64,000 nt of DNA. Source: a virus. This document shows, piece by piece, positions 46,595 through 64,000 of the stretch (its first letter is position 1; each line of letters opens with the position of its first letter). A model generated the notes under the pieces. The model was not told where the DNA came from and searched no databases. It saw only the letters and a list, made by a program, of their open reading frames with translations. A program made the position numbers and the translations under genes. The DNA lies in IMG/VR virus record IMGVR_UViG_3300037089_000505, positions 64,001 to 128,000 of that record; one strand, 5' to 3'.

Positions 46595-46641
46595 ACTCTT
46601 CTCCTCTTATACTTATCTTTCGTTTGGCATACTTAAATCAA

Positions 46642-47208
46642 ATGACCATTTTCATAGACCAAGACAACGTATTGAATAAATTCATTGATAATTGTGTGGT
46701 TTATATTAACAGACTATACAATTTTGATATAAAATTCACCGAGGAAGATTGTAAGAATTGGGATGTATTTAAACAGATATTCCCATTTGCCTCTGAAAAA
46801 TTCACAAATGAGATGGCCGAAAGAGTATTTAGTGCAACTGGCTTTTGGTCTACAATGAAAATCAAAGACAGCGCTGCTGAAGTCATGCAAAAACTAATAA
46901 ACGATGGGCATGAAGTTTTTATTGCTACTATGCCCTGGGAAACGGCAAGAAATTGTATATCTGAAAAAATATCTTGGGTTGAAGAAAACTTACCCTTCTT
47001 CAGAACAAAAAACATAATCACCTGTCCTAATAAAAAATTTCTCACTGGCGATGTCATTTTAGACGATGCCCCACATATTATAGAAAATACACCACATTGT
47101 AAATATAGAATTATTTATGATTATCCATACAATCAAAATGTAGAAGCTAGCTTTCGTATTAAAAGCTGGAATGAAGCTTACTCAGTCATAAGCAACTTAG
47201 AACGATAA
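46642..47208 (+). CDS. 5'(3')-deoxyribonucleotidase (NT5C/HAD)
   Basis: IFIDQDNVL, EK..WV...LPF, K....GDVILDD and PYNQ motifs. Confidence 0.85.
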   Translation: MTIFIDQDNVLNKFIDNCVVYINRLYNFDIKFTEEDCKNWDVFKQIFPFASEKFTNEMAERVFSATGFWSTMKIKDSAAEVMQKLINDGHEVFIATMPWETARNCISEKISWVEENLPFFRTKNIITCPNKKFLTGDVILDDAPHIIENTPHCKYRIIYDYPYNQNVEASFRIKSWNEAYSVISNLER

Positions 47209-48367
47209 GTTAACTTCAAGAGGTATTAATATTGAGGCTCAGTAGTAGTCGGGACAATATAGCTGTTGATATTCAAGCGAAAATTTTTAACAAACATAAT
47301 GTATGGTCACTCATCTTTAAGCCCACAGAAGGTCTGAAATTTATTACAAGTGATTCCTTTACAAGCGGTAAGGATCTATATCAGAACATGACGCGTAATG
47401 TTATAGATAAAATTCAACCTTTTGGTGCGACCCTGAAGGAAACTTTTGTCCTTATTGAAGATGAAAAAATAAAATTAGATAGAGACAATGCTGAAAAATA
47501 TATGAACAAAATTATCAAAGAAGATTTAACAATAGTTTTTCGAATCATGATAAATAATAAGAACTATGAGTATCAAGTTAATTCATAGAGGTGCTATATG
47601 AAGTTAAATAAATTGTTTGAAATGCACGACGAAGAGCTTGATGAGAAAACTCGAAAAAAGATAGCTAAGTTATTCCCAGCAGCATGGAAAAAGGCCCCAG
47701 CTAAATTTCATGCAGAAGTTAAAAAAGAATATGACGGAGCCGATTTATCAACTGATATAGATCCAGACGATATTGACAATGAAGATGGACCTATTGAAAT
47801 AATGACTTCACCGGCTAATCCTCCTGAAACGGTAAATGATGATGATACAGATGTAGCCGTTGAGGTCGAATTTGAGAATGGAGTGTTAACCGTAATTGGT
47901 TGGCGAATAATGAGTTGATTTATTATTTTACATCAAGCGACGAAAAATTAACTAAAGACACGTGGGACATTTGGTCATTTTTTATTTCGTTCAAAAAAGA
48001 GAGACCAGTTGTTGGATCAAAAGGAATAATCTTTCGGTACAACGATGACCTCTGTGAAGTAGAAGAATTAGTTTCTGGAGCTGAACTAATGCCGATACCT
48101 TTCTTGACTGAAGAAATGAAACACGCATTTATAGATGGATGCTTCAAAGCATTTAGAAGGGGATAATATGGAAGAAATGGAAGCTAGAGAATTAGCAAAA
48201 CAGCGCAATCTTAAACGTGCCGCTAAAAGATACGAACAAAACAAAATGGCAATAGAAAAAGCCAACGAAGATTTACAAAGACGCATATCTAAAAGAACAT
48301 TAGAGATATTAGATTCAAGTATGAAAAATTTTAAGAAAGGTAAAGTGAGTGATCCCATTGACATTTA

Positions 48368-48720
48368 GGGGACGTTAAGGTTTCGACTGGAATTGGTTCG
48401 GTCTTGGATCGCAAGTAGAGTGCTAAACTCTTAAATTAGCAAAAACACAACTGCCGAAAATTTTGACGCAGATTTTGCTCTGGCTGCTTAAACAGTCCTC
48501 GCACGGGTCTTCAGAGTCTAGTCTCCAACATCTGAATTAACCTGAAACAAATCGAGACTTACTTATAGATGATTTCGTTACATCTCTAAGAAAACTATAA
48601 CGAATTTGATAAAGAGCAGAAGTTGGCTCTTAACTCTTTATCGAGAAAACAATACCAACTAAACTTGTAGAAGTTCTTGATCAGCATTCCAACACGCGGG
48701 TCCGACTCCCGCCGTCTCCA
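48368..48720 (+). ncRNA. ssrA: tmRNA; tag peptide (A)AENFDADFALAA*
   Basis: 5' GGGGACG...GGTTTCGAC; 3' T-arm GCGGG-TCCGACT-CCCGC then CGTCTCC-A, giving G3:U70. Tag ORF at 48453-48491; CCA not encoded. Confidence 0.95.
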
Positions 48721-48796
48721 TAAAGAAGATAAAATATTATCTCTTCTTGAAATTAGAAAGTGTCTAAAGATAAAATACACGAGGTAAAAAATAAAC

Positions 48797-48976
48797 ATGC
48801 AAATAGGCGATGTAGTTTTATTAAAAAGCGACATGAGACACGCTATGACAATTGGTTTGAAGTCTAAAGATTATGAAGGATATTGGTGGTGCTACTTTTG
48901 GCCACTTGATGGCAGTACAGTAGCGCATATTCAATTACCTGAATCAGTACTAATACTAGTAAAACCGAATAAATAA
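48797..48976 (+). CDS. Small YodC/DUF2158-like protein
   Basis: MQIGDVVLLKS...MTI...C.FW...LPESVL; SD GAGG. Confidence 0.55.
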   Translation: MQIGDVVLLKSDMRHAMTIGLKSKDYEGYWWCYFWPLDGSTVAHIQLPESVLILVKPNK

Positions 48977-49020
48977 AAAAGCTTAATTAAAAATGTTGTA
49001 AATCAATAAGTCTTATAAGC

Positions 49021-49056
49021 GCAGGGACCCTGGCAACAGGGTCTTTGCCTTTGTTT
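49021..49056 (+). terminator. Intrinsic terminator-like hairpin upstream of nrdJ
   Basis: GCAGGGACCCTG-GCAA-CAGGGTCTTTGC followed by CTTTGTTT. Confidence 0.6.
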
Positions 49057-49123
49057 AAAGGAGGGTATTTATTGTCAATTGAATTTCTGTGTTAATTTAA
49101 ATTATGTAGGAGGAAAAATGTAA

Positions 49124-51466
49124 ATGCCCTGGATTTGGAATCAACCCATAAGCAAAGATGTATTTGATATTAAATATAAGTTTCACAGAGAATCTGTAGA
49201 ACAGGTTTTCGATGATATATCTACCGTTGTTTCAACGGTAGAAAAACCAGAAAAAAGAGAGGAGGTTAAAAAACTATTTTATGATACGATGATAGCTGGA
49301 CGATTTATTCCAGCTGGTAGAATTTTGGCAAATGCTTGGCCGAAAAGTAAAATCAAAAACTTTATGAATTGTTTTACAATCGGAATTCAAGACGACATGA
49401 ATGCCATATATGATTCCTTGAAAGAGGACGCTAAGATTAGTAAAGTAGGCGGGGGAGTTGGATTTGATATCTCACCGCTGAGACCGAAAGGAACTCCGCT
49501 TTCTGTAGGCGGAGAAGCTTCAGGCCCAATTTCATTTTTGAGAATTTTTGATGCTTCAGCAAAAATAATAATGACGGGTGGAGCTAGACGAGCCGCTCAT
49601 ATAGCCCTCTTAGCAGTAGACCATCCGGACGTTGAAGATTTTATTACCTGTAAACAAGGTGATAAGAATCGTGCCCTCACTCAGTTTAACATTTCTGTAA
49701 AGATTACCAATAAATTCATAGATGCTGTCGAGAAAGATTTAGATTGGGACTTAGTGTTTGATGGCAAAAAGTACAAGACGGTCAAAGCAAAATATTTATA
49801 TGACTTGATGGTCAAGAATGCTTATACTAATAACGAACCAGGCATGTTCAATGTTGATACAATCAACTTCTATAACAATGGCTGGTGGATTTTTGAGATT
49901 CACGAGTGCAATCCTTGTGGCGAGATTTCTATGGAAAAATATTCTTCTTGTAATCTTGCGTCACTAAATCTTACTACCTACATACTAGAAGCTTTTACAC
50001 CAAAGGCTTCATTTGATTTTGATCTGTTCAAAAAAGATGCTGCAATGGGAATCAGATTTTTGGATGACGTATTAGATGCCGCCGACTATCCGTTACCAAA
50101 AATAGCCGAACGCATGATGCAGACTCGGCGAATTGGTTTGGGGATTACTGGACTTGGGGATGCCTTCGCTATGATGGGCATGAAATATGGAAGCGAAGAA
50201 TCAAAGAAGCTGACAAAGAAAATTGCTACAGTCTTTAGGAATGCCTCATATGAAACTTCGGTAGGACTTGCTGCTGAAAAGGGTATGTTCACAGTTTGCG
50301 ATAAAGAAAAGATTCTCCAATCTAATTTTGTTAAGAAGTTACCTGAAGCTATTCAAGAAGGAATTAAGCAATACGGCCTCAGAAACATAGCTTGTAATGC
50401 TATTGCGCCGACAGGTACAATTTCTTTGACCTTTGGCCAAAACTGTTCGTCGGGTATTGAACCCATCTTTTCCTTTGAATATAATCGACGCGTTCGCACA
50501 AAGAATGATCCAGATGTATATACTGAACAAAAAGTTATGGACTATGCGTGGCGCCTATGGACCGAGCAGAATAGTCATAGCAAAGAAGCGATTATCAACG
50601 CTTTGAAAGAAGAACCAAAACCCAAAGATGTATCAGCTCAAGCTTGGGAACCTCGCCGAGATCTGACTGATGTCGTGAAACATCCAGAGTTCTTTGTAAC
50701 TACTAAAGACGTATCGGCCAAAGACTCAATAGATATACAAGCAATCTTCCAAGAGTATATTGATCAAAGTATTTCTAAGACTCTAAATCTTGCTCCAGGG
50801 ACTACGTTTGAAGAGTATAAGGATCTTTTCATGTACGCTTACAAGAAAGGCCTTAAAGGGTTCACTACGTTCAATCCAGAAGGTTCTATGAAAGGTATTC
50901 TAGAGTACAATGAACCAGTTGAAACTAAAGATTCTGATTATGTAGTAAGACGTAACGCTCCTAAGCGTCCTGACGAGCTTGAATGCGACATACACCAAGT
51001 AACAGTTAAAGGGCAAAAGATCGTAGTCTTAGTTGGAAAACATAAAGGCTCTTTATATGAGATTTTTGCCGACGATGATCAATCTAATAAAATTGACATC
51101 AAGTATGACAAAGGCATCATAAGAAAAATAAGTCGTGGACGTTATGATCTTATTGTCAAGAACGGCGAAGAGAAGCTCATAGTAGAAAATTTGAGTAAAA
51201 ACTTTGGTGGAACCTACGGCGTGTTGGCTAGACTTGTTTCTATGTCATTGAGGCATGGGACGCCGCTGCAATTCGTAGTAGACCAACTTGGAAAATCAAA
51301 CGAGTTCGTTGGATTTGAAAAATCAGTATCACGTGTTCTTAAGAAATATATTAAAGACGGCGAGAAGGTCATGACTGGTGAAGTTTGTCCTGAGTGTGGA
51401 AACGAACTACAATTCAAAGAAGGTTGCGTAAGCTGTCCTAATTGCTCTTGGAGTCGATGTTTATAA
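49124..51466 (+). CDS. nrdJ: Class II (AdoCbl-dependent) ribonucleotide reductase with C-terminal zinc ribbon
   Basis: PAGRIL, NCF, GGGVGFD, NPCGE, SCNL, RRIGLG, IAPTGTIS, ISKT and CPECG...GCVSC motifs; no ATP-cone and no beta subunit nearby. Confidence 0.9.
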   Translation: MPWIWNQPISKDVFDIKYKFHRESVEQVFDDISTVVSTVEKPEKREEVKKLFYDTMIAGRFIPAGRILANAWPKSKIKNFMNCFTIGIQDDMNAIYDSLKEDAKISKVGGGVGFDISPLRPKGTPLSVGGEASGPISFLRIFDASAKIIMTGGARRAAHIALLAVDHPDVEDFITCKQGDKNRALTQFNISVKITNKFIDAVEKDLDWDLVFDGKKYKTVKAKYLYDLMVKNAYTNNEPGMFNVDTINFYNNGWWIFEIHECNPCGEISMEKYSSCNLASLNLTTYILEAFTPKASFDFDLFKKDAAMGIRFLDDVLDAADYPLPKIAERMMQTRRIGLGITGLGDAFAMMGMKYGSEESKKLTKKIATVFRNASYETSVGLAAEKGMFTVCDKEKILQSNFVKKLPEAIQEGIKQYGLRNIACNAIAPTGTISLTFGQNCSSGIEPIFSFEYNRRVRTKNDPDVYTEQKVMDYAWRLWTEQNSHSKEAIINALKEEPKPKDVSAQAWEPRRDLTDVVKHPEFFVTTKDVSAKDSIDIQAIFQEYIDQSISKTLNLAPGTTFEEYKDLFMYAYKKGLKGFTTFNPEGSMKGILEYNEPVETKDSDYVVRRNAPKRPDELECDIHQVTVKGQKIVVLVGKHKGSLYEIFADDDQSNKIDIKYDKGIIRKISRGRYDLIVKNGEEKLIVENLSKNFGGTYGVLARLVSMSLRHGTPLQFVVDQLGKSNEFVGFEKSVSRVLKKYIKDGEKVMTGEVCPECGNELQFKEGCVSCPNCSWSRCL

Positions 51467-54373
51467 GCTCAAGATAATTACATGAAAGACACGAAGGCCA
51501 TGAAGCCTGTTCCTCTAATTGGCGATCATTGGCGATCAACTTATGGCCTATTGTTTGAATCTATTTTCGCTGGCGATCCAGACGCAGAATTCGAAAATAG
51601 TCGAGAGGATCTTAAGAAAGGCAAACTCCGCTTTGATTTAGTATTGACCACCGGAATATTGCGAGAGTTAAAGTCGGCAATCAAGAAAGTAGATTCCGAT
51701 TTCAAATGCATTAACAAAACTGGCGAGATTGCTTATACTACTATAGATCTTAAAAAGAACTTACTCTATACACAACTATTCACAGACAAGACTGCTTATG
51801 CTGATCCTGACGACTATAATTACGGCAACCAAGATTGGTACGCTGAAATTGGAATCAATCTTAGCTCAGGTTCTATAGTAGATTTCAATGTGAGTTATGA
51901 TACATGAACGTCTTGACTTTACAACAAAATGAGAGCTATTATTCAAAAAGCTTAAAGTGGTTCTTTACAGTAGTACGAAAAGAGCCGCTCGAAGTCCTAA
52001 CCTTTTACTTTGATGATTATCCAAGAAACAGCGGATGGGATATAAAACCCTTGAAAAAGTTACCAGGACTTCTAAGTGAAGTCATACGAAAATCTAATAA
52101 CACTTTTCTTAAAGCTGCTAATAAAGACTGTGAAAGAATAGTCAAACAGATATTTAGATCTAAGAATTTCACTTACGGCGAAGAATACTAAACTCAAGAT
52201 AACTACATGAACTTCCAACACTTACTCAAAGACTCAATATTTACGCGTCCAATAATTCGCTGGGTCTTTGAAAAAGATAAACTTAAGTGGGCTGCAACTA
52301 TTTCTAGTGTAGAAAAAGCATGCCCATTAATGTGGGCTGCTATAGATGAAGTGTTGCCACATGTAACACGTCGAGTAAAAGAAACATTAAAATCTACTAC
52401 CAATCTTTTTGCAAGTAGTGTTGGCGACAATTTATGGCTTAGTTTTTCAAAGCCCAAACAATCGGCATTCGATAGTAAAATAAGTTTTTCTTCTCCAGCT
52501 ATAACTTTCGTAATAGACAAAAACTTTGATGTGTCGGCGAGAATACCTTGATAGAATATAGACAAAAAGGTTTACCAACTTACAGATATTATTTTATCAA
52601 AGATGTTTTCGAAAAAGAAGAAGACATAGTTGAGCGCTGGGATAAAGATATAAAGCTTAAGCTTGATGGATATACAACTGAATGGATTTTGAAAATTAAT
52701 AGACACAAGACTAACTATTCTAAGTTGTCCATAACACTCGCTCGAACTTTCTACAACGAACATCAGATATATACTAATTTAGAAATAGGTCTTTACAGAG
52801 ATGGTTTTCATATAACACTTGTAGATCTTAACGATACAGAGTTACGAAAATACCTATTTGGAGATATAAACAGGTCTACTGCATGGACACAAGAAGTGGC
52901 TAAAGTTGCTCTGATAGCTAATGAAATAACAACTGAGATTAAGAAATTCATCGGCGAGAAAAATAAAGAATGAAAATTCATGACAGCCGAGACAATAACG
53001 ATTACATAGTCAGTCTCGATTTTGTAGGCAATGCAGCCACTCTAAAATGGGATTCGTTTGCAGCCAAGGAGACTGCTCCTACAGATCAAAAGTTTTTCCT
53101 ACATGATCTATTCTCTGAACTAAGAGCAGGTGAGACTACCATAATTTCAATTAATATTTTTGAACGCAGATTTTTGATTAAGAAGATTTGGGAAATGGAA
53201 TGAAGCTTAAAATTTGGCAATATCCAGACGACTTTGACCAAGAAAATTTACCTCGGAGCAAATGGAAGTATGATTACTTTATAACAGGCTTGGACAAAAT
53301 TATTTCCCGTAATGCCATGCCGCGTATGATGCCAGTACATCTTTGGTACAACTACCATGAAGAGAAATGGAATATTCAATTTTGTCAAAGAGCCTATAAA
53401 GTTGAACTAATAGTAAAACCAGAATTTAAATCAGAGATAAAACAATTGAAAGGTCTACCAGAAGAAGTTAGTTTCTTCTATAGGATTCTAATTTTGTTTG
53501 CTTTTGTCCATAACGATTATGAAGAAGTCCACAAAATTAGAGAGAAATACTTTGGCAACAATGATACTACACTTATGAAAAGCGACGAATGATATGTGGA
53601 TACAACGACGTGAGACTAATTATATCGCTGACGTCTATTTCAAACATTCTTGGAAAGACAAGGTTACAGTCATGTGGACCAGCACAGGAACTGATCCAAA
53701 AGAACATGTTTGGACAATGACGTTTGATGAATTTGTATTGAACTACTTAAAGCATGCTAAACTAATAACACACGACACTAGCGCTGAAGACTATTTTGTT
53801 ATAAAGAGCATCTTTCACAAAAGATAATCTAATGGGGATGATCTGGTATAAAAGAGCTGTTAGTTATAATGTACAAGTAGGAACTGGCGGTGCGGCTGTT
53901 CACTATTTATTGTATAAGGAAACTCCTCCAACATTAAAAACTATCAGATTTGAATCTGGTGCAGAAGAACGTTATGCAGGCCAGAAAACTGGACTAACGA
54001 CTTGGAAGGTTACTCCCGTCCTAGCTGGTAAATTAACACTAGCTGACGATCCGCCAAAAATAGACGAAGAAGATTGCAGAAAATTTTTTCGTTGGATTTG
54101 GTGGGCTGACTTATGAAGTTAAAACTATTAAAAGGAGCAACGGCCAAGTTTACTATAAACTTTAGTTCTGATGAAGTTGTTTTAAGGTGGTCAAGTGGCA
54201 GCGAGGGTTGGATTAACACTACGATAATGCTCAAACAGTACTTGACTCAAGATTTTAAAGTTTTAGAAGTAAGTGAAACAGAAGCTCGTTATTTAATTAA
54301 ATCAGCATTCTCGTTAATCAACTAAAGATAATTTCGACACACATATATACTATACACAAGGTGGTAACGTATC

Positions 54374-55000
54374 ATGGCTGACGTTTTAGCGCAGAGAGTC
54401 CTTGTGCTTAACAAGGGCTACAATCCAATCAGAATCATCAGCGTGCGCGAAGCGTTCATAAAACTCTACGCAGAAGTCGCTGAAGTAGTCACCGTCGAAG
54501 AAGGTAACTACTGCAACTATGATTTCAACTCTTGGGCAGAAGTCTCTGAGTTGAAAGAAAAGTTGGAAGATCTTGGAGAGCTCGATGATGTAGTCTACAC
54601 TGCTAGATTCATACTCATCGTGCCCAGGATCATCAGACTTCTGGCTTATGACAAGGTTCCAAAGAGGACGCTCAAGCTGACCCGAAAAAACATTTACGCA
54701 CGAGACTTGAGTACTTGTCAGTATTGCGGTAAGGAGTTACCAACTGAAGACTTGAATCTCGACCACGTCATGCCAAAGTCTCAAGGTGGTCAGGCGACTT
54801 GGACAAACCTTGTTTGTTCTTGTATCGTTTGTAACACTAAGAAAGCAGGCAGGAGTCCGAAGGAAGCTCACATGAAATTGATCAAGCTTCCGGTCGAGCC
54901 AAAGTATAATCCAATGCTCCAGGTCCACATCGAGAGCGAGAAGTATGGTGCCTGGAAGAGCTTCATCAGCGAAGCTTATTGGACCACTGAATTGCATTAG
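54374..55000 (+). CDS. HNH endonuclease
   Basis: VLVLN...RKNIYARD..TCQYCG...LDHVMPKSQGG..TWTNLVCSC..CN.KK. Confidence 0.92.
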   Translation: MADVLAQRVLVLNKGYNPIRIISVREAFIKLYAEVAEVVTVEEGNYCNYDFNSWAEVSELKEKLEDLGELDDVVYTARFILIVPRIIRLLAYDKVPKRTLKLTRKNIYARDLSTCQYCGKELPTEDLNLDHVMPKSQGGQATWTNLVCSCIVCNTKKAGRSPKEAHMKLIKLPVEPKYNPMLQVHIESEKYGAWKSFISEAYWTTELH

Positions 55001-55085
55001 GGAAGACAGCGGGAAGATAAAATCTCTTAAAGAGATAATGAAGCATCGGTTTGCTATTCAATCTTCCCGCTAATTCTCCATATAC

Positions 55086-55158
55086 GCCGGCTTAGCTTAT
55101 TTGGCAAAGCGCCTGATCCGTAATCAGGAGAGGCCCGGTTCGAGCCCGGGAGTCGGCT
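55086..55158 (+). tRNA. tRNA-Thr(CGT), with C33
   Basis: Acceptor GCCGGCT/AGTCGGC; anticodon arm CCTGA-TCCGTAA-TCAGG; T-loop TTCGAGC. Confidence 0.88.
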
Positions 55159-56461
55159 TTCTACACAAGATAATTAAATGATCTACTATTACAATAGGGG
55201 CGCATCGCACGGCACTGGCGTCGATAAAGGCAAACACTGGATAGAGTTTTTAGTGACGTTCGACGGGGGCATGGGTGGTACTGAACTTACTCAGCAAGAA
55301 TTAATCAAAGAAGTATTTAGTTACGCTCAGCGCGGATATATAATAGAACTAAACATATCAAAAAGTTTTTTGATACAACAGCAAGCTAAAAGTCAAGGCC
55401 TTAAGTATGTAGATCTTAAATTGGAAAAAATGTGTGACTTACTATAGAGAATTTTGGACAGAAGGCAATAAACATATAGCTGATTTTTATGCTACCTATG
55501 GAGAGGCGCCAAATATTTTTGCAGCTTTAAGCGAACAGAAATTCATACGGAGAATATTTAAATACGCTGCTGATGGTATGATCCTTCGACTTCATATTGA
55601 TGACAGGCTAAAATGAAAATGGTTAAATCATTTACTTGGTTCGGTAATAAACTTTTCAGGGTCTTTCTCTATAAACGCATATCTGCTACTACAAAAGCAA
55701 AAGCTATTTGGGCAGAAAGGAATTTTTTGGGTTGGGAAAAGGGTGAATTACTTCACACAAAGTATGGTTGGAGTTTAGAGTATCATTCTACGGGACAAGG
55801 ACCGGGCTCTATACATAAACATATTTCCTTAAACTCAGTAGAGCTACCAACAGAGACGCTTCCGAAGCTAAAAGAAATTTCTTGTCAAAACTTAATGAAG
55901 CAAATTTTTGAATGGGAGTGGCAATGAAATTCACAAGAATGGACCCACAATATTATAGTAAAAATATTTTTGCTTTTAACTATGGGGAGTATAAGACTGG
56001 ACAGGGCTTGGCCGCCTATTATGACTATGATCTTCCGAGCCGCAATAAATGGTCTTGGGGTATAATGATGTCCCATAATGAGTTAACTAAAAATAATTTA
56101 TTGCCGCCAATTAAATATGATGAAATACCCAGTCAAGCCCTTCATAGTTTGATAGTAGACTTATTTACTTTACCAAAAATAAAATTTAATCCGGCTCAAG
56201 ATCCTGTCCATAGTAAATTTGAATGGTCTTAGCGAAATTATGAAAGTGGCCTACGGAAAATATAGCAAATGGTATAAGCCCAGCGACCACATGGTTATTG
56301 GTTGCTCAACAAAAGAAAAGTCCATATTGATTCTTCCGAGTCTTTTAGATATAACTTGGTATATAGCTAGTATAAAAGAATATCAGATGTTAATAAAAAA
56401 TATATTTGAGGCCATAAAAATAGAGAACAAAACTTAGTTTCGATCACAAGATAAATTACCA

Positions 56462-56536
56462 ATGAAAGGCATAGATATGTATATGAATCAGTCGCTCGCA
56501 ACATTCCAACAGACCCAAACTACAGATACTGTTTGA
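56462..56536 (+). CDS. Attenuator leader peptide (MKGID)MYMNQSLATFQQTQTTDTV
   Basis: In-frame ATGs at 56462, 56477 and 56483 (AAGG before 56477); 9 of the last 11 codons are Thr/Gln/Asp. Confidence 0.7.
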   Translation: MKGIDMYMNQSLATFQQTQTTDTV

Positions 56537-56537
56537 A

Positions 56538-56587
56538 CTTTTGCGGGGAGTGCGTAATACAGACTTCCCAAAGTGGAAGTCTTTTTT
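56538..56587 (+). promoter_or_regulatory. Overlapping antiterminator / intrinsic terminator (attenuator)
   Basis: Terminator AGACTTCC(56561-68)/GGAAGTCT(56575-82) plus T5; competing helix GGGGAGT(56545-51)/ACTTCCC(56563-69). Confidence 0.75.
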
Positions 56588-56795
56588 GTTGAAGGTGGCA
56601 TATGAGGAGGAAAAAGAAAAGGATTCAGCGTTGGAGACAGAATTCTTGCGAAGGCAAGGTTGACTTCAAATCTATCGAGACGGCGGAGAAAGCAGCAGCC
56701 AGGTTGAATGAAAAGAAGAACAGACCTGGATATCATGAATTAGAAGCTTACCAATGTTCCTTCTGTAAAGGATGGCATATTGGTAAAAAGTATAC

Positions 56796-56867
56796 GCCGG
56801 CGTAGCTCAATGGCAGAGCGGTACCTTTGTAAGGTAAGGGTTGGGGGTTCAAGTCCCTCCGTCGGCT
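56796..56867 (+). tRNA. tRNA-Thr(TGT)
   Basis: Acceptor GCCGGCG/CGTCGGC; loop TT-TGT-AA; T-loop TTCAAGT. Confidence 0.92.
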
Positions 56868-56874
56868 TAAACAT

Positions 56875-56947
56875 AGAGCCGTAGTGTATCGGTTTAGCAC
56901 GCGAGACCGTCAATCTCGAAGGGCGGGTTCAACTCCCGTCGGTTCTG
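56875..56947 (+). tRNA. tRNA-Asp(GTC), with C33
   Basis: Acceptor AGAGCCG/CGGTTCT; G73; anticodon arm CGAGA-CCGTCAA-TCTCG. Confidence 0.9.
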
Positions 56948-56948
56948 T

Positions 56949-57557
56949 ATGAGAAAATTATTTCTTGTTTTGTTTTTATTCGTAGCTGCTCTTTCATTTG
57001 CTAATAAGAGCTGGTATGTAGATCAGAATGGAACTGGCATAGGAAACTGTGGACCGGCAACGGTAGCTATGATGATTTCTTATACAGAACACGTTCGCAT
57101 TCCAGTACAAGTAATTCGGGAAGAGATAGGATATACAAGAGATGATGGCAGTACAGATCTTGAAGAGTTATCAGGTGTTCTTGAGCGTCATAAAATTCGT
57201 TATTCTAAAACAGAAATAAAGACGAAGGTTGATTTGGATGAGCTTTTGGAAACTCATCACATAGTTTTAGTTGACGTAGATATGAGCTATATCCCTAATA
57301 AGAGCAACTATGATAAAGGTCACTACTTGATTCTGTCTAGCTATAGTGAAGGGACTTATGAGGCTCAAGATCCTCTTAATGGATCTGATGTTCATTACAA
57401 CGCTGATGCAATATGGTCAGCTATGAAAACGAGAGAAGTACTTGTAACTGGTAATGGAAGACTGCCACTAGTAGGTTTTGGATTTATTACCCAAATACTA
57501 TTAGTCATCGACATTAGTGCTATCGTAGTTCCGAAGAAAATTATTTTGCCGTGTTAG
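56949..57557 (+). CDS. Secreted C39-like cysteine peptidase
   Basis: Signal peptide; Q......NCGPATVAM, GHYLIL and QDP catalytic motifs. Confidence 0.8.
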   Translation: MRKLFLVLFLFVAALSFANKSWYVDQNGTGIGNCGPATVAMMISYTEHVRIPVQVIREEIGYTRDDGSTDLEELSGVLERHKIRYSKTEIKTKVDLDELLETHHIVLVDVDMSYIPNKSNYDKGHYLILSSYSEGTYEAQDPLNGSDVHYNADAIWSAMKTREVLVTGNGRLPLVGFGFITQILLVIDISAIVVPKKIILPC

Positions 57558-57649
57558 CTCAGTTGGTAGCAGCGTTTCCTTGGAGAATGCTTTTTTAAGA
57601 GAGCACTGTCCTAAGGAAAAGGTCCCCAGTTCAATTCTGGGACACGGCT
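57548..57649 (+). tRNA. tRNA with a 28-nt anticodon-loop insertion, best read as tRNA-Thr(GGT)
   Basis: Acceptor GCCGTGT/ACACGGC plus U73, as in the two other Thr tRNAs. The stem TTTCC/GGAAA encloses 35 nt; removing 57584-57611 gives TT-GGT-AA. Confidence 0.75.
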
Positions 57650-57650
57650 C

Positions 57651-57840
57651 TCGTCTCGACACATAGACGCATGGGTAAAACTCGAGTCAAGACCCAAGTA
57701 TTCTAAAGTCTAATAGAGCAGCTTTCTAGAAAGCTATCGAGTACTTAATTAGACATTAGCTGAACGATATCGCATTGCGATAGTAGGCGAAGTATTCAAT
57801 GGCAAAGCGGTAAAGGTGCGACAGCCGGGAGAGACCGGCT
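57651..57840 (+). ncRNA. Candidate structured ncRNA of unknown class
   Basis: At least five helices and a possible pseudoknot in an intergenic stretch with no credible ORF. Confidence 0.5.
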
Positions 57841-57893
57841 TTATTTGGAATCATTGCTCGTTGAGCAAAAGTAATATTTATAGAGGAGTTAAA

Positions 57894-59090
57894 ATGAAAA
57901 GATTCAAGAATCTGTTCTTGTTTTTGGCTGTTCTTGTATTAGCGTCAGCTAGTGCTTGGGCGATGCCAGCGGCAGGTAAGACTCTTACCATCGGATTGGT
58001 ACTGGTCGGACCTTACAATGATCTAGGATGGAGTCAGGCAAATTATGATGGCGTTCAATACGTCGTCAAGAATGTTCCTGGAGTTCAGTTCATTTATATT
58101 GACAAGGCTAATCCAGCAGACAGGCCGGGAACGACAGTGTCTCAACTAGCTGAAAGTTTGGTTGCAAAGGGCGCGAAGCTAATTATCTTCAGCTCAGATG
58201 ATATGGGTGATGAGGCAGTTAAGTTTGCTACAGCGCATCCTGATATTTTCGTTGTTATGACTTCTGGTAGCCAGGTATGGAATGCTGGAAAAACCTATCA
58301 GAACCTACCGAACATGATTAACATCATGGGTCGTATGGAATTTGGCAAGATGATCGCAGGAGTTGCCGCCGCCATGACGACAAAGACTGGTAAAATTGGT
58401 TACCTCGGACCACTTATCAATGATGAAACGAGGCGATTGTGTTCTTCAGTATATCTTGGAGCCAAGTACGCTTGGACAAATTACTTGAAGAAAGATGCTG
58501 CTAAGCTTCAATTCAAGGTAACTTGGATTGGATTCTGGTTTAACATTCCGGGTATCACTTCAGATCCCTCACAAGTGGCCGATGCATTTTTCAATGATGG
58601 TTACGACGTGGTAGTTTCTGGTATTGATACTAGCGAAGTTGTTACAGAGGCAGCAAAGTTTACGGCTCAAGGCAAGAAAGTTTTCGCAATTCCTTACGAT
58701 TACTCAAGCGCCTTCGCCGCTTCACCTGAGGTTAATTTGGGCGTTCCTTATTTTAATTGGGGTCCTGCTTATGTAGTAGCTGCAAAAGCTGCAATGGGTG
58801 GTTCTTGGGTTTCCCACTTTGAGTGGAACTCCCCCGACTGGAAGAATGTTAACAACCCTGATACATCAGCGGTTGGTTTCAACAAGGGCAAGGCACTTTC
58901 ACCTAAGGCTTCGGCTGCAGTTGATAAGTTTCTTTCCGAACTTGCATCAGGACTTAACCTATGGAAAGGTCCTATGAAGCTTCAAGATGGTAAGACCTAC
59001 TTGGTCGATGACCAGAAGGCAACAGATCAGCAGATCTGGTATTTGCCTCAACTCTTGGAAAATATGCAAGGACAGAGCGTTTCGAAGTAG
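57894..59090 (+). CDS. BMP/PnrA-family ABC transporter substrate-binding protein
   Basis: SD GAGGAG; signal peptide; GPYNDLGWSQANYDG, TKTGKIGYLG, WIGFWF and YFNWGPAY motifs. Confidence 0.9.
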   Translation: MKRFKNLFLFLAVLVLASASAWAMPAAGKTLTIGLVLVGPYNDLGWSQANYDGVQYVVKNVPGVQFIYIDKANPADRPGTTVSQLAESLVAKGAKLIIFSSDDMGDEAVKFATAHPDIFVVMTSGSQVWNAGKTYQNLPNMINIMGRMEFGKMIAGVAAAMTTKTGKIGYLGPLINDETRRLCSSVYLGAKYAWTNYLKKDAAKLQFKVTWIGFWFNIPGITSDPSQVADAFFNDGYDVVVSGIDTSEVVTEAAKFTAQGKKVFAIPYDYSSAFAASPEVNLGVPYFNWGPAYVVAAKAAMGGSWVSHFEWNSPDWKNVNNPDTSAVGFNKGKALSPKASAAVDKFLSELASGLNLWKGPMKLQDGKTYLVDDQKATDQQIWYLPQLLENMQGQSVSK

Positions 59091-59100
59091 TATTACAATT

Positions 59101-59127
59101 AGAGGGCAAGGCTTCTTGCCCTCTTTC
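59101..59127 (+). terminator. Hairpin immediately 5' of tRNA-Gln
   Basis: AGAGGGCAAG-gctt-CTTGCCCTCT followed by TTC; short T-tail. Confidence 0.45.
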
Positions 59128-59129
59128 AC

Positions 59130-59203
59130 TCGCCCTTGGCCAAGTGGATTAAGGCAGAAGACTTTGGATCTTCTATGCGCAGGTTCGAATCCTGCAGGGC
59201 GAA
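59130..59203 (+). tRNA. tRNA-Gln(TTG)
   Basis: Acceptor TCGCCCT/AGGGCGA; anticodon arm GAAGA-CTTTGGA-TCTTC. Confidence 0.92.
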
Positions 59204-59212
59204 TATTTACAC

Positions 59213-59287
59213 TGTCCCGTAGCTTAGCTGGCCGAAAGCGTCTGTCTCTGGAACAGAAGAGCCTCCGTTCAAATCGGAGCGGGACAA
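59213..59287 (+). tRNA. tRNA-Gln(CTG)
   Basis: Acceptor TGTCCCG/CGGGACA; anticodon arm TCTGT-CTCTGGA-ACAGA. Confidence 0.9.
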
Positions 59288-59301
59288 AAAGAAAGGGAAA
59301 C

Positions 59302-59718
59302 ATGGAACTAATAATTTCAATCGGTCTCCCCGGCTCTGGCAAATCTACTTACTATCGCACAGCGCTTGCGAAAAGTCACACACAAATCTCCAAGGATCTA
59401 ATGAGCGGCTCTCCAACTAGAAAAAATCAGATTCAGATTGACATGATTACTCAATCTCTAACTAAAGGATTGAATGCAGTAATCGACAATACTAGTGTCA
59501 CAGCTGAAGTTCGGAGGCCTTTAATTGAGCTCGGCCACAAACTTGGCGCAAAGGTAATTGCGTATTACTTTCCGACTTCAGTCAAAGATTGTATTGCTCG
59601 CAATGCTCAGCGAACGGGTAGGGCTAAAGTACCAAATGTGGCTATCTACACTATGGCAAAGAAGCTTCAAGGGCCAACAAAAGCTGAAGGCTTTGACGAC
59701 ATAATTACGATCAATTGA
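59302..59718 (+). CDS. P-loop kinase (AAA_33; polynucleotide-kinase-like)
   Basis: IGLPGSGKST, ISKD, VIDNT..R, C.ARN.QR and P...EGFD motifs. Confidence 0.85.
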   Translation: MELIISIGLPGSGKSTYYRTALAKSHTQISKDLMSGSPTRKNQIQIDMITQSLTKGLNAVIDNTSVTAEVRRPLIELGHKLGAKVIAYYFPTSVKDCIARNAQRTGRAKVPNVAIYTMAKKLQGPTKAEGFDDIITIN

Positions 59719-60882
59719 GGCATCTATGAATGAAACTGATCATCCTATTTTTCAAAGCTTGACTGATTTTAATTGGTATAAGTCTTCGCTAGACGTTGCC
59801 AGTCGTTACCATTTCCGCCACCGTGGAGAGCCTAAGAAATATCCTTGCAAGCTTCTTCACTCCGAATTTGATTCAGATTCTAACGGACCTGACGGTTATA
59901 ATCATTCTTTCATTTACTTACAGGAAGTCAAGTGTCCGATGTGTGAACACAAAGAGTTTGTGTGGCCACAAATTGAGGACGAAACATGAACCAAGAAAAT
60001 ACAAAAAAGCTTTTAGATCGATTCAATTTCTTTCAGCCCACTATGCATAATCCAAGAAGATTTTGGGGCTTTGAATGCGGAGACGGTTGGTTTGAGTTGA
60101 TTTGGAAGCTATGTGAAGATTTAGATGAAATGCGAAAGCATTTAATCATTATTCCAGAAGATCCATTTCAGGCTCTTCAAGTCAAAGAAAAATTCGGCGG
60201 ATTAAGATTTTACATCAATGGGTGTAGCAATGACATGTTCCAGCGAATTCTCAAAGCTGAACATGATTCTTTTTCAATTTGTGAAAATTGCGGAAAGGCA
60301 GGCGAGCTCAGACCGGGCGGATGGGTTAAAACTCTTTGTGATGAATGCTGCGAAGCTCGCTATGTAGAAGATTGTAGCATGTGTCATTTGTGCCATGATC
60401 CAAACGAAGAAACTATTCAAGCTATTCAAGAAGCTCGTGGAAGCGAAAATATTTCTCCCGAGCCATTAGAGCCTATTGAAAAACTACTTGAGGACTATGA
60501 TAAGAGGAATCCATGATCTTAGCGTTTAAACTAACAATGCCTGGTTCGCCAAGTTGGAATGGAAAATGGAGCGGCGAAGGTCGACTCTATGCACGAACTC
60601 GAACAGTCACAAAGAAAAAAGGCGAAGAGGTTTTGGGCGGATCTGACAAGAAATTCTTCGGCTATCGCTGGTCTGATGGTTGGTTTGCTAGTGTTGAAGT
60701 TGAACAAGTGAACAGCAACGAAAAAAGAAAACTCACAAAAGATTCAGTTGGATTTGCTAGCTATGATTGGATGATAGATTCAATTCTAACTCACGGCAAA
60801 ATCTTAGCCTCTTAGCTTTTTCAAAAACGTACCAAACATTGGCAGTAAAGACGCAAAGATAAAAGCGAAGGAGGGACCGCTA

Positions 60883-61095
60883 ATGAGTGATTTCAATGTT
60901 GAAGATGATCTAGTATATAAGGTGTCCGATGGCGACCCAGATACTGACGACAGCGATGATTTGGATCCATCCGATTTTCCTGATTTCGACATTCCAGATG
61001 ATTTTGATCCCGATGATGACGATGCTTTCGATGACGACAACGTCCTTGATGATTTTGAGGATGACGATATCGACATCGATATAGACGAGCAGTAA
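60883..61095 (+). CDS. Extremely acidic small protein (32 Asp + 3 Glu of 70 aa)
   Basis: SD AAGGAGG; own downstream terminator. Confidence 0.7.
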   Translation: MSDFNVEDDLVYKVSDGDPDTDDSDDLDPSDFPDFDIPDDFDPDDDDAFDDDNVLDDFEDDDIDIDIDEQ

Positions 61096-61109
61096 AAACA
61101 AAACAATTG

Positions 61110-61133
61110 GCCAGCTTTGTCGCTGGCTTTTTT
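61110..61133 (+). terminator. Intrinsic terminator
   Basis: GCCAGC-tttgtc-GCTGGC followed by T6. Confidence 0.7.
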
Positions 61134-62497
61134 GTGTGTAGTAAGAAAGATAATTCTATGGCAAGAGCAGTAAAGAGATTAGTCGTCGGTCAACAATATA
61201 TAGATAAATCGCCAAGTGTACCAAAGGCCTTTTTCTTAATAAAAGTTAAATATATTGATAAACGTACTCGCCGACCAGCTATAAGTCGATTAGCTAAAAT
61301 AACTCGTAAAGGTGTCACTTCAGACATATACCCTTTGAGTGGCGGCTATGAGTTTCAAGATGACGCTCATACCAAACGCACATACAACAAACATGAGTTC
61401 ATCAAATTCATTTACAAAAAAATAGATACGGAGTTTTAATATGAAGAAGCTATTATTAACCTTAGCCTTATTATTAGTAGCAGCAATAAGTTTTGCTACT
61501 TCAACTGTTACCGACTGGAGCAAATATTGGACTAATAGACTCACTACTGTCGGCGTAGTAGCTGGCGTAACTAAAGTCAATGCGTTATATTTAGTGAACT
61601 TTGTAGGAACACCAACAAATAACGAACTTAGAATAATAGTAACCTGTAGTGATCCTACTGTTGTGTTTACTAAGTATGATAATATAGCTATATCAGCCGC
61701 TATCATAAAGAATTTGAGTGCCATCAAAACATATAATGGATTGACAACAATATACATAGTCACTTTTCCTTACACGAGAGCTATGTTTGTCAAAGATTTA
61801 TTAGCACCACCGAAGAAACAAAATTTAATGAGTATAACGGTATTAAAAGATGAAACCCAAAAAAAGAAATAATACTCGAAAACCTCGAACGACACTACCA
61901 GCAGCACCAGTCATTGTTCAACTTCAACAACCGCCAGCTCTCATTGAAGAAAAAAAGTCTCCTCTTAGAAATTTATTTGAAAAGTGGATTGCTCCTCTTA
62001 TCTTAGCAATTATTGTGGCAGCTGTTAGCTACACATTTTTAGATCGACTAACTAAAGTTGAAAATATTCTGGCCGATTTACAAAAAACTGTAACTGAATT
62101 AGATACTAGTTATTCCAAAGACTCTGAAACTAAAGGGTCGATGGCTGCTGACGTTAAGCAATTAGATAGATGTTGGCATCTTGAAGGACGAAGATGATTT
62201 ATTACCACAAGAGCGATAAAGAATGGTATGAAACATGGGCGTGGCCGAAAGCTGACGTTCAAATTTATGTAGAAACACTAGGCCACGTGAGTGCTTCATT
62301 TAAGCGTTCTCTTATTATTGATGAATGGAATTATGAATATATAGTTTCTCACTTTGATTATGAAGAAGAACGTTTCGTTCAAGCCGCTGATCATCAATTA
62401 GAAACACTTGTTAAAATGATCTTCAATCCAAAATGGACTATCGAAGATCAAAGACCCGCAAAATAGCATATTTTATTTCATTAAGGAAGTAATATAA

Positions 62498-63406
62498 ATG
62501 TCGACTAATATACCTGTAATTAACGTCAAAGGAAAAACTTTACCTGAAGCTTATGAAAAAGCAATCATGGCTCTTTATGATAATGGTTGCCGTATGAAGA
62601 CTCAATATGATAATCCAGATTCGCCACCTTCAATAGATGCTACTGCCAACATCACAATTGAAGATCCCGAGGCTGAGCCCATGATTTATAAATTCTTTCC
62701 GGGCGGAATTGAAGACCTTCATGAATACGTGATTGAACTTCAGGGAGCTAAAAATCATTGGGTCAGGGCTATGGACGATCCAAATGACAAACGATGGGAA
62801 TATACTTACAATCAAAGGTTGACTAAGTGGGGCGAGTGGAAAGAAAAGTCGGGCCAGATGACGCCCACATATACTGCAAAAGCATTTGAACAAAATGGTC
62901 CAATTAATCAAATCAAGTTAGCTGTCAAGAAATTGATCGAAACGCCACATTCGCGAAGAGTTCAAGCAATCACTTGGATGCCTTTTATAGATAATGAAGT
63001 AAGTGATCCGCCATGTCTACAGTCGATGTGGTTTAGAATGCTCAAAGAAGATGATGTTTATTACCTTAACTCTAATATTCGATTTAGAAGTAATGACGCG
63101 TGGGGAGCTGCATTTCTAAACATGTTTGGTCTCACTATGTTCATTCGAAAGGAAGTAGCCAATCCAATTGCAGTTGGTCTAAACGCAACTGTAAAACTAG
63201 GAAGAATCAATTGGCAAGCTGATAGTTTTCACATATATGGAAAAGACATTAAAGGCGTAGAGCAAAAATTGCTTCCAAGACTCTCCCCCTATAGTTTTAA
63301 TGATAGAGTTTGGAACTTTAATGATCCTATAGTGCAAGATATCTGGAAAGACGCTAAAGATGAAGTTTTGAACAAAATAAAAGAATACGACAAAACTCAC
63401 CAATGA
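62498..63406 (+). CDS. thyA: Thymidylate synthase (ThyA family)
   Basis: YTYNQR, SRR, DPPCLQ, FRSNDAWGA..N and SFHIY motifs. Confidence 0.85.
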   Translation: MSTNIPVINVKGKTLPEAYEKAIMALYDNGCRMKTQYDNPDSPPSIDATANITIEDPEAEPMIYKFFPGGIEDLHEYVIELQGAKNHWVRAMDDPNDKRWEYTYNQRLTKWGEWKEKSGQMTPTYTAKAFEQNGPINQIKLAVKKLIETPHSRRVQAITWMPFIDNEVSDPPCLQSMWFRMLKEDDVYYLNSNIRFRSNDAWGAAFLNMFGLTMFIRKEVANPIAVGLNATVKLGRINWQADSFHIYGKDIKGVEQKLLPRLSPYSFNDRVWNFNDPIVQDIWKDAKDEVLNKIKEYDKTHQ

Positions 63407-64000
63407 CAGGAATTTATATACTAACAAACAAAATAAACAATAAAAAATACGTGGGACAAAGTGTAAATATAGACCTAAGAAATAAACGACACCATAAGGA
63501 CTCTATAATCGATCGGGCAGTCAGGAAGTATGGTCGCATTAATTTTTCAATAGAAAAATTTGCTTGCTCTGAAAATAACTTAGATTGGTTAGAAAAAGAG
63601 TGGATTAAATACTTAGATTGTTTAATACCAAAAGGCTATAATATTCTTGAGGGCGGCCAAAATAATAAACACCATCTTACAAAAAATCAGAAAGAAAATT
63701 TAAGCTTAAAATTAAAAGGCGTAAGAAAATCAGAAATTACTCGGCTGTCAATGAAAGAAAATCATGCCGATTTTTCGGGAGAGAAAAACCCTATGTTTGG
63801 TAAAAAACAATCTGAAAAAACAAAAAGTGAGATTAGAGAAAAGAACAAAGACAAAACTTTTTCTAATGAAGCTCTTTCAAAAATGAGCGTCTCTGCAAAA
63901 GTTCGGACCAAAAGATCTTCAAGAGATGAAAAAGGTAGATATTGCCAAAAGCCAATAGAAATTATAGCTAAAACACCAGGGGCCATTAGGAAGATTGAAT
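63403..64000 (+). CDS. GIY-YIG homing endonuclease with NUMOD3 repeats, 3'-partial
   Basis: MTGIYILTNKINNKKYVGQS...KYG..NF...E..WI...KGYN..EGG...GEKNPMFGKK; absent from the ORF track because it has no stop in the window. Confidence 0.9.
   Translation, partial: MTGIYILTNKINNKKYVGQSVNIDLRNKRHHKDSIIDRAVRKYGRINFSIEKFACSENNLDWLEKEWIKYLDCLIPKGYNILEGGQNNKHHLTKNQKENLSLKLKGVRKSEITRLSMKENHADFSGEKNPMFGKKQSEKTKSEIREKNKDKTFSNEALSKMSVSAKVRTKRSSRDEKGRYCQKPIEIIAKTPGAIRKIE

Follow-up and report, generated by a model that had tools for sequence, protein, structure and literature searches.

The stretch of DNA considered here, referred to as the window, comprises 64,000 nucleotides (nt) of a single virus record in IMG/VR (bases 64001–128000 of IMGVR_UViG_3300037089_000505, 143,947 bp, 40.6% G+C), and the public sequencing runs that contain identical DNA are peat metagenomes. 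The plus strand carries nearly all of the genes of this phage, which encodes a transfer-messenger RNA (tmRNA), 16 regular transfer RNAs (tRNAs) and two tRNAs with inserts of 27–28 nt in the anticodon loop. The tRNAs are dispersed among small open reading frames (ORFs) from 119 kb onwards, as far as the contig end. The element in question is a leader of ~125 nt containing a short ORF and an intrinsic terminator, which stands ahead of a gene for a protein of 67 amino acids (aa) and a group of tRNA genes. An initial annotation, made from the letters alone, had described it as a leader-peptide attenuator that senses the depletion of particular tRNAs. The main features of the locus, in window coordinates, are as follows.

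56438..56454, plus strand: upstream motif TTTCGAnCnnAAGATAA, conserved in the related locus L015 and a candidate for a promoter or an initiation signal
56465..56469, plus strand: Shine-Dalgarno-like (SD) AAAGG, 7 nt 5′ of the ATG at 56477
56477..56536, plus strand: leader ORF of 19 codons, MYMNQSLATFQQTQTTDTV followed by a stop, with homologous same-frame ORFs in the related loci L013, L015, L012 and L016
56489..56501, plus strand: segment 1, which pairs with segment 2 in ribosome-free RNA (minimum-free-energy folds)
56504..56537, plus strand: inner hairpin with the invariant CAAACUACAGAUAC (56516–56529) as its loop and the stop codon within its 3′ strand (RNAalifold)
56538..56551, plus strand: segment 2, the 5′ strand of the antiterminator, beginning 2 nt past the stop codon (fold)
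56561..56588, plus strand: intrinsic terminator with an 8-bp stem, a 6-nt loop and a T6 tail (two independent scans)
56602..56805, plus strand: 67-aa gene with an arginine-rich N-terminus and a zinc-ribbon-like CxxK...CxxCxGWH motif, the first gene past the terminator
56796..56867, plus strand: tRNA-Thr(UGU) (ARAGORN, Rfam)
56874..56948, plus strand: tRNA-Asp(GUC) (ARAGORN, Rfam)
57548..57650, plus strand: interrupted tRNA, most likely Thr(GGU), its anticodon loop carrying a hairpin insert of 28 nt (Rfam, 48 bits)
59130..59287, plus strand: tRNA-Gln(UUG) and tRNA-Gln(CUG) (ARAGORN, Rfam)

The short ORF described in the initial annotation is borne out by the sequence in its coordinates, starts and stop. 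An alternative in-frame ATG at 56462 would lengthen it to 24 codons, and the TGA stop lies at 56534–56536. Nine of the final 11 sense codons (ACA TTC CAA CAG ACC CAA ACT ACA GAT ACT GTT) specify Thr, Gln or Asp. For the leader as a whole (leader 1), these three residues account for 10 of the 18 post-start codons against a proteome frequency of 0.147 (binomial P = 7e-5). Among 1050 other short ORFs in the six frames of this genome there is none with so high a fraction, and the two results together make it unlikely that the bias arose by chance. The absence of ACG from the leader, which had also been pointed out, is real but is not significant and has been rejected as evidence, because ACG makes up only 15% of the Thr codons of this genome.

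The tRNAs that read these codons lie behind the leader. ARAGORN and Rfam agree on the Thr(UGU), Asp(GUC), Gln(UUG) and Gln(CUG) genes, all of which had been named in the initial annotation, and every Thr(UGU/GGU), Asp and Gln tRNA of the phage is encoded downstream of leader 1. ARAGORN reads the interrupted gene at 57548–57650 as Ser(GGA) with an intron. The earlier assignment to Thr(GGU) is nevertheless the better one, since the molecule has no long variable arm, it aligns with the Thr(GGU) of a relative, and its insert site is that of the interrupted Thr(UGU) ortholog in L013.

The terminator consists of AGACTTCC-CAAAGT-GGAAGTCT plus T6. It was recovered by a consensus scan and by further scans, as the initial annotation had it, and ranks among the few strong intrinsic terminators of the 144-kb genome. 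It is placed 125 nt past the stop codon of the upstream gene and 14 nt ahead of the next one. The two alternative pairings that had been proposed for the leader were also found. When the RNA is folded from the stop codon as far as the terminator loop, the minimum-free-energy structure is an antiterminator in which segment 2 pairs with segment 3 (2:3, ACUUU/AAAGU plus GGGGAGU/ACUUCCC), at −11.4 kcal/mol as against −10.3 for the terminator. This pairing sequesters 6 of the 8 nt of the terminator 5′ arm, which is matched by 1.6% of dinucleotide shuffles of the spacer (500 trials per locus, here and for the relatives below). In the fold of the whole leader, CGCUCGCAA of the leader pairs with UUGCGGGG of segment 2 (1:2). 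Folding of the window leader with a ribosome mask gives the three states of a classical attenuator: 1:2 followed by the terminator when no ribosome is present, 2:3 when a ribosome sits in the ORF, and masking of segment 2 by a ribosome at the stop codon.

Promoter-like motifs had been proposed at 56439–56457. A sigma-70 scan gives no match there; TTTCGAnCnnAAGATAAA, upstream of the leader ORF, is conserved in L015, and the AAGATAA within this region is strand-biased, with 63 copies on the plus strand of the genome and 20 on the minus strand. The copies often lie just 5′ of ORFs, and 12 of them stand exactly 4 nt ahead of an ORF ATG. AAGATAA may serve either as a promoter that yields leaderless mRNAs or as a signal for SD-independent initiation. 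Copies are seen, for example, at window positions 51471, 52196, 53821, 55167 and 61147, with no conserved −35 element.

Homologs of the 67-aa protein led to four further loci for which DNA is available (L013, L015, L012 and L016), and the five loci are treated as four lineages, the window and L013 being counted as one. The leader of L013 is 96% identical to that of the window compared with 80% for the flanking genes, and only the loop of its terminator is altered. L015 has the leader MNMNQTTVITQQTQTTDTFE followed by a stop, in which Thr, Gln and Asp provide 12 of 19 codons; its terminator is the same as that of the window and its segments 1 and 2 are different. The leader of L012 reads MEIHAINIQVAQTTDTA and stop, with a terminator of different sequence, and L016, from a 250-kb phage (record G006), has MRCEREDEDT and stop with yet another terminator sequence. 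The subclade to which L016 belongs is represented by this one DNA sequence and two over-extended protein calls.

Several properties are common to these loci. AAGG or AGGA is found 5–9 nt ahead of the leader ATG in all of the relatives, GAU-AC(U/A) is conserved in the same frame of the ORF in every lineage, and the leader stop is separated from the terminator stem by 24–26 nt, or 36 nt in L016. Apart from QTTDT, the leader peptide is poorly conserved. An RNAalifold alignment of the window, L015 and L012 shows compensatory changes in five stem pairs of the inner hairpin, and the terminator helix is kept in L012 with four pairs changed on both sides. Across the five loci the antiterminators range from −10.1 to −11.5 kcal/mol and the terminators from −9.9 to −13.7 kcal/mol, the two being of similar stability within each locus, and in all five the antiterminator sequesters 6–7 of the 7–8 nt of the terminator 5′ arm. 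Shuffled spacers do as well in 1.6, 4, 0.4, 2.2 and 0% of trials for the window, L013, L015, L012 and L016, respectively. As the antiterminators are retained although their sequences differ between lineages, a selected terminator/antiterminator switch is well evidenced. Searches by nucleotide sequence added no further relatives: blastn of 55900–59800 against the phage collection gave no match, and the pattern CAAACTACAGATAC-N2-3-TTGA met only chance matches inside unrelated genes of viral contigs.

The initial annotation had raised the question of whether the codons of the leader change with the tRNAs downstream of it in related phages, and such a change is observed. A leader rich in Thr, Gln and Asp codons precedes Thr, Asp and Gln tRNAs, and the Glu/Asp-rich leader of L016 precedes tRNAs for Asp, Glu, Glu and Glu, which are the sole Asp and Glu tRNAs among 64 in the 180 kb of that genome examined. 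Asp and Glu supply 5 of the 9 codons of the L016 leader (P = 2.5e-3), a fraction found in only 1 of 1977 short ORFs, which is presumably this leader. A second ORF, MKILRDSKRRQDLLQ followed by a stop, overlaps this leader and is the less likely candidate because its GAGG abuts the ATG; the existence of two candidates introduces a factor-of-two choice into the codon test. The 64 tRNAs of G006 are mostly grouped by amino acid and include two with a CUA anticodon (amber suppressors, 193217–193367), and both the leader ORF and the 67-aa gene of L016 have a TAG stop.

A second attenuator-like unit is present in the window phage itself, outside the window at genome positions 130433–130636, ahead of a tRNA array running from Pro to Val. 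An ORF of 25 codons, MTKLSWPIRHPIYPVAAFNYEGEGV followed by a stop (leader 2), is preceded there by a strong SD and a copy of AAGATAA. Its antiterminator, which includes the TAG stop, has a free energy of −17.9 kcal/mol and takes up 11 of the 13 nt of the terminator arm (2.2% of shuffles), and the terminator reaches −20.6 kcal/mol with a T6 tract. About 215 nt past this terminator come tRNAs for Pro, Pro, Tyr, Phe, Pro, His, Asn, Gly, Asn, Val and Val, together with two irregular ones. When the codons belonging to the two tRNA sets are counted in leader 1 and leader 2, each leader proves specific for the tRNA block behind it (Fisher test, p = 0.001). The block containing leader 2 is 90–93% identical in another phage, L045, although its neighbouring gene there shares only 49% protein identity. 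Scanning of the window phage and of G006 ahead of their tRNA clusters returned no units besides leader 1, leader 2 and that of L016, and blastn found no block resembling either leader of the window phage in the 180 kb of G006.

A non-coding block of ~210 nt between the leader 2 terminator and tRNA-Pro(CGG) is 85% identical between L032:2637-2846 and L045:7041-7238, with flanking genes that are far more diverged, and may be a structured RNA. At genome 137513-137623 (L032:9513-9623), a strong SD and a mini-ORF, MPPPS followed by a stop, are followed 57 nt on by a 12-bp terminator (−18.9 kcal/mol). This element precedes a small ORF and tRNA-His and could be a polyproline stalling element.

The 67-aa gene, which occupies the position between the terminator and the first tRNA, had been overlooked in the initial annotation. 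It has a good SD, its ATG follows the T-tract by 14 nt, and its 3′ end runs into tRNA-Thr(UGU). A gap of this size cannot accommodate a separate promoter, so the gene must be reached by read-through. The N-terminus of the protein is MRRKKKRIQRWRQN. The protein matches PHROG 15216, and only PHROGs of unknown function match; an AlphaFold2 model (predicted local distance difference test, pLDDT, 78) has no fold match in the PDB by Foldseek, nor does the sequence match any solved structure. The more distant homologs are found either in packed gene arrays that have no leader or directly behind tRNA genes; one of them, P0005, has kept the arginine-rich N-terminus and lies in a packed array without a leader. 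The family thus appears from its genomic placement to be associated with tRNA arrays, and the leader to be specific to the close clade. In two unrelated contigs a homolog begins right after tRNA genes, namely Glu, Glu, His, Arg and Arg at L042:395-1180 and Arg at L044:542-944, and in L044 a release-factor/ArfB-like GGQ protein is encoded just upstream of the homolog.

The favoured interpretation is a ribosome-mediated leader-peptide attenuator, by which transcription of the 67-aa gene and of the tRNAs behind it would be tied to the speed of Thr, Gln and Asp decoding; this reading is given an even chance of being correct. That the terminator is switchable in some manner is considered probable, while the idea that codon identity is the variable being sensed is more tentative and falls a little short of even. 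Transcripts would enter the ~125-nt leader, probably starting just past AAGATAA and otherwise from upstream, and the weakly SD-led ORF of 19 codons would then be translated. A ribosome that reaches the stop codon would cover segment 2, allowing the 8-bp/T6 terminator to form and transcription to end. Should the ribosome linger on the ACN, CAR or GAU codons, owing for instance to a shortage of the cognate tRNAs through host tRNA cleavage or turnover, segment 2 would be left free to pair with the terminator 5′ arm. RNA polymerase would then read on into the 67-aa gene, tRNA-Thr(UGU), tRNA-Asp(GUC) and the insert-bearing tRNA-Thr(GGU), and possibly into the Gln tRNAs and a kinase gene behind them. 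Since the switch would respond to the very codons that the tRNAs behind it decode, it would behave as a homeostat of decoding capacity. The anticodon-nuclease trigger put forward in the initial annotation is purely conjectural; any shortage of those charged tRNAs would do.

A number of observations weigh against this attenuator reading. The whole-leader fold is not unusually stable when compared with shuffled sequences (z = −0.88), and mutual exclusion of 1:2 and 2:3 is found in the window and L013 only. In L015, L012 and L016 mask folding indicates that the antiterminator forms without a ribosome and that the upstream hairpin coexists with it. A ribosome at the stop codon masks segment 2 in the window, L013 and leader 2 and does so partly in L015; in L012 segment 2 is merely touched and in L016 it is not reached. 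Strict exclusion of the 1:2/2:3/3:4 kind, on which the initial annotation was founded, is confined to the window and L013, and the comparison suggests conservation of the switch but not of its exact trp-like logic. The 14-nt core CAAACUACAGAUAC is invariant in its nucleotides within the loop of a covarying hairpin, which would fit a binding site for a protein or RNA as well. It is the 67-aa gene, and not a tRNA, that is the constant downstream partner of the leader in all of the relatives. The L016 leader has just 10 codons and is accompanied by the overlapping ORF, and for leader 2 the codon match to the verified tRNAs is weak when taken alone (12 of 24, P = 0.056). Only one or two units are seen per genome, and most of the tRNA clusters of the 64-tRNA relative lack one. 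Membership of the Gln tRNAs in the unit is uncertain because they lie 2.5 kb downstream, beyond two hairpins (57823–57840 and 59101–59124), and control of these tRNAs and of the kinase by the leader is possible. Furthermore, no RNA run is listed among the public runs that contain the window phage, and contigs assembled from four runs that partly contain it had no informative leader variants.

The invariance of the loop, set against the covariation of its stem, is also an argument for a different explanation, in which a trans-acting factor binds the CAAACUACAGAUAC hairpin and sets the balance between antiterminator and terminator, so that the locus would be a factor-dependent antitermination system or riboregulator with an ORF that is incidental or secondary. 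The factor could be the 67-aa protein, another phage protein or an RNA. Arginine-rich stretches of lambda N-type proteins bind RNA hairpins, and the 67-aa protein begins with such a stretch and is always encoded first past the terminator; the ribosome-independent antiterminators of L015, L012 and L016 are likewise in keeping with such a factor. The explanation is nevertheless considered unlikely, as it accounts neither for the conservation of the SD, ATG and frame nor for the change from Thr/Gln/Asp to Glu/Asp codons in step with the tRNA cargo. In addition, L016 has nothing of the conserved loop except GAUACU, leader 2 has a different hairpin and no 67-aa gene, P0005 combines an arginine-rich N-terminus with the lack of a leader, and no family or fold match of the 67-aa protein points to RNA binding.

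Less likely again is that the ~125-nt transcript is a small gene complete in itself, either the mRNA of a micropeptide or a small RNA with the loop as its seed, the downstream genes being served by constitutive leak-through. A promoter-like motif, short ORF and terminator do fall within 150 nt, with a conserved single-stranded core, and in other systems terminated attenuator transcripts act as small RNAs (PMC7968998). Such a gene would not require antiterminators that are conserved, statistically unusual and built from lineage-specific sequences, and the 67-aa gene would be left without space for a separate promoter. The poor conservation of the peptide beyond QTTDT does not favour a functional micropeptide, and sites in the window that repeat the invariant 14-mer or are complementary to it do not exceed what chance would give. 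The possibility that this is an ordinary intergenic terminator closing the upstream gene block, with the ORF, alternative pairing and codon match all coincidental, is thought very improbable. In its favour, the whole leader folds no more stably than shuffled sequences, short ORFs abound, and a CA-rich stretch will of itself supply Thr and Gln codons in one of its frames. Coincidence of this kind has to contend with an arrangement kept in full in four lineages despite altered sequences, with the exceptional codon content of the window and L016 leaders, with a second unit in the same genome, and with a terminator that stands far from the upstream stop codon and close to the next gene.

Leader-peptide attenuation is a textbook form of control of amino-acid operons, and the class of mechanism proposed for the window leader is thus familiar from thrL, ilvL, trpL and hisL; what the unit suggests as new are the phage tRNA targets and the implied feedback on the tRNA itself. 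With the Escherichia coli attenuators (thrL, ilvL, trpL, hisL, pheL and the pheM of pheST) it shares a short SD-led ORF rich in regulatory codons, a stop codon beside segment 2, competing antiterminator and terminator structures and a U-tract terminator directly ahead of the first gene under control. The Thr-rich run of the leader is reminiscent of thrL and its mixed set of codons of the multivalent ilvL. The presumed targets differ, however, in being phage tRNA genes and a small zinc-ribbon protein rather than biosynthetic or synthetase genes, and the product sensed would be the tRNA and not the amino acid. Moreover, the 1:2 anti-antiterminator is not conserved here as an exclusive pairing.

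Like the T-box leaders, the unit would sense the state of a specific tRNA through the choice between antiterminator and terminator. At ~125 nt the window leader is too short to be a T-box and lacks a specifier loop, stem I and T-box sequence, and an Rfam scan of 46000–64000 (E ≤ 1) found only tRNAs and the tmRNA, with no T-box match. Sensing would also proceed via the ribosome instead of by direct tRNA binding, with tRNA genes as the targets. A promoter-proximal hairpin, a following gene whose small protein product has an arginine-rich N-terminus, and terminators that transcription has to pass are likewise found in the N/nut system of lambda. Unlike that system, the window leader has no similarity to boxA or boxB, its terminator precedes the protein gene, and it has a competing antiterminator hairpin for which N has no need; there is no relation in sequence or fold. 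In the Caulobacter phage phiCbK, annotated terminators lie directly before tRNA blocks and are preceded by small ORFs. One of these, gp083, has Ser, Leu, Pro or Lys at 23 of 44 residues and precedes tRNAs for Pro, Lys, Leu and Ser; another ORF of 32 codons contains QFVRQIQVV and precedes tRNAs for Phe, Val, Ile, Ile, Val, Gln and Gln. The lineage and sequences of phiCbK are unrelated, and the window unit differs in having a protein gene between the terminator and the tRNAs.

A full-text search of the literature gave, among the papers covered, no description of leader-peptide attenuation controlling tRNA genes, whether phage or cellular. The broader proposal is that phage tRNA operons carry codon-matched attenuators as homeostats of decoding capacity, with the leader rewritten along with its cargo (Thr/Gln/Asp to Glu/Asp), the tRNAs transcribed only on shortage and the design general across unrelated phages; it is put forward tentatively and may well not hold in full. 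If true, it would reveal the way in which large phages control their tRNA arrays and would add a general, previously undescribed layer to the regulation of viral tRNA genes. The leaders would then provide a direct molecular readout of which host tRNAs become limiting in infection, be it through anticodon nucleases, host shut-off or codon mismatch, and would offer a compact, reprogrammable means of sensing how fast particular codons are decoded. The co-variation of leader and tRNA cargo makes the attenuator idea directly testable.

The remaining features between the first tRNAs and the likely end of the unit are as follows.

56949..57557, plus strand: peptidase C39-like gene, 202 aa (Pfam match under the family cut-off)
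57823..57840, plus strand: moderate terminator-like hairpin inside the putative operon (scans)
57894..59090, plus strand: gene for a Bmp/PnrA-like substrate-binding lipoprotein (Pfam PF02608)
59101..59124, plus strand: perfect 10-bp GC-rich hairpin without a U-tract, just 5′ of the Gln tRNAs (sequence)
59302..59718, plus strand: polynucleotide-kinase-like P-loop gene (AAA_33, profile matches)
61109..61128, plus strand: next strong terminator, followed by AAGATAA; the likely end of the unit (scans)

Beyond the copy at 56448, AAGATAA next occurs at 60856 and then at 61147. A homolog of the C39-like gene also follows tRNA-Asp in L013. The Bmp gene looks like a mobile auxiliary gene, since its closest viral relatives (L001–L008, 47–54% identity) are in non-syntenic contigs without tRNAs. 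Relatives of a 125-aa gene are found, without synteny, within tRNA arrays in other phages, and the kinase and a 100-aa gene have no relatives in IMG/VR. The 240-nt non-coding stretch from the interrupted tRNA to the Bmp gene (window 57651-57893), which includes the terminator-like hairpin, has no Rfam match. Between tRNA-Thr and tRNA-Asp, L013:455-634 and L015:1015-1225 have an insertion of ~200 nt where the window has 6 nt, and in L013 part of this is a weak extra tRNA-Asp-like gene (32 bits).

Three phage tRNAs have a hairpin insert of 27–29 nt in the anticodon loop, at window 57548-57650, genome 143259-143361 (L032:15259-15361) and L013:350-450, the last being the ortholog of the intact tRNA-Thr(UGU) of the window. 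Alignment suggests that the insert follows anticodon position 35, and in the predicted fold it lengthens the anticodon stem into a rod; its length is insufficient for a group I intron. The polynucleotide-kinase-like gene lies near the interrupted tRNA of the window. A further tRNA-like gene at genome 137363-137488 (L032:9363-9488) scores 33.8 bits in Rfam, with an insertion of ~55 nt and no ARAGORN call. The tmRNA of the phage is encoded at window 48368-48720 (Rfam, 128 bits) and specifies the tag peptide AENFDADFALAA.

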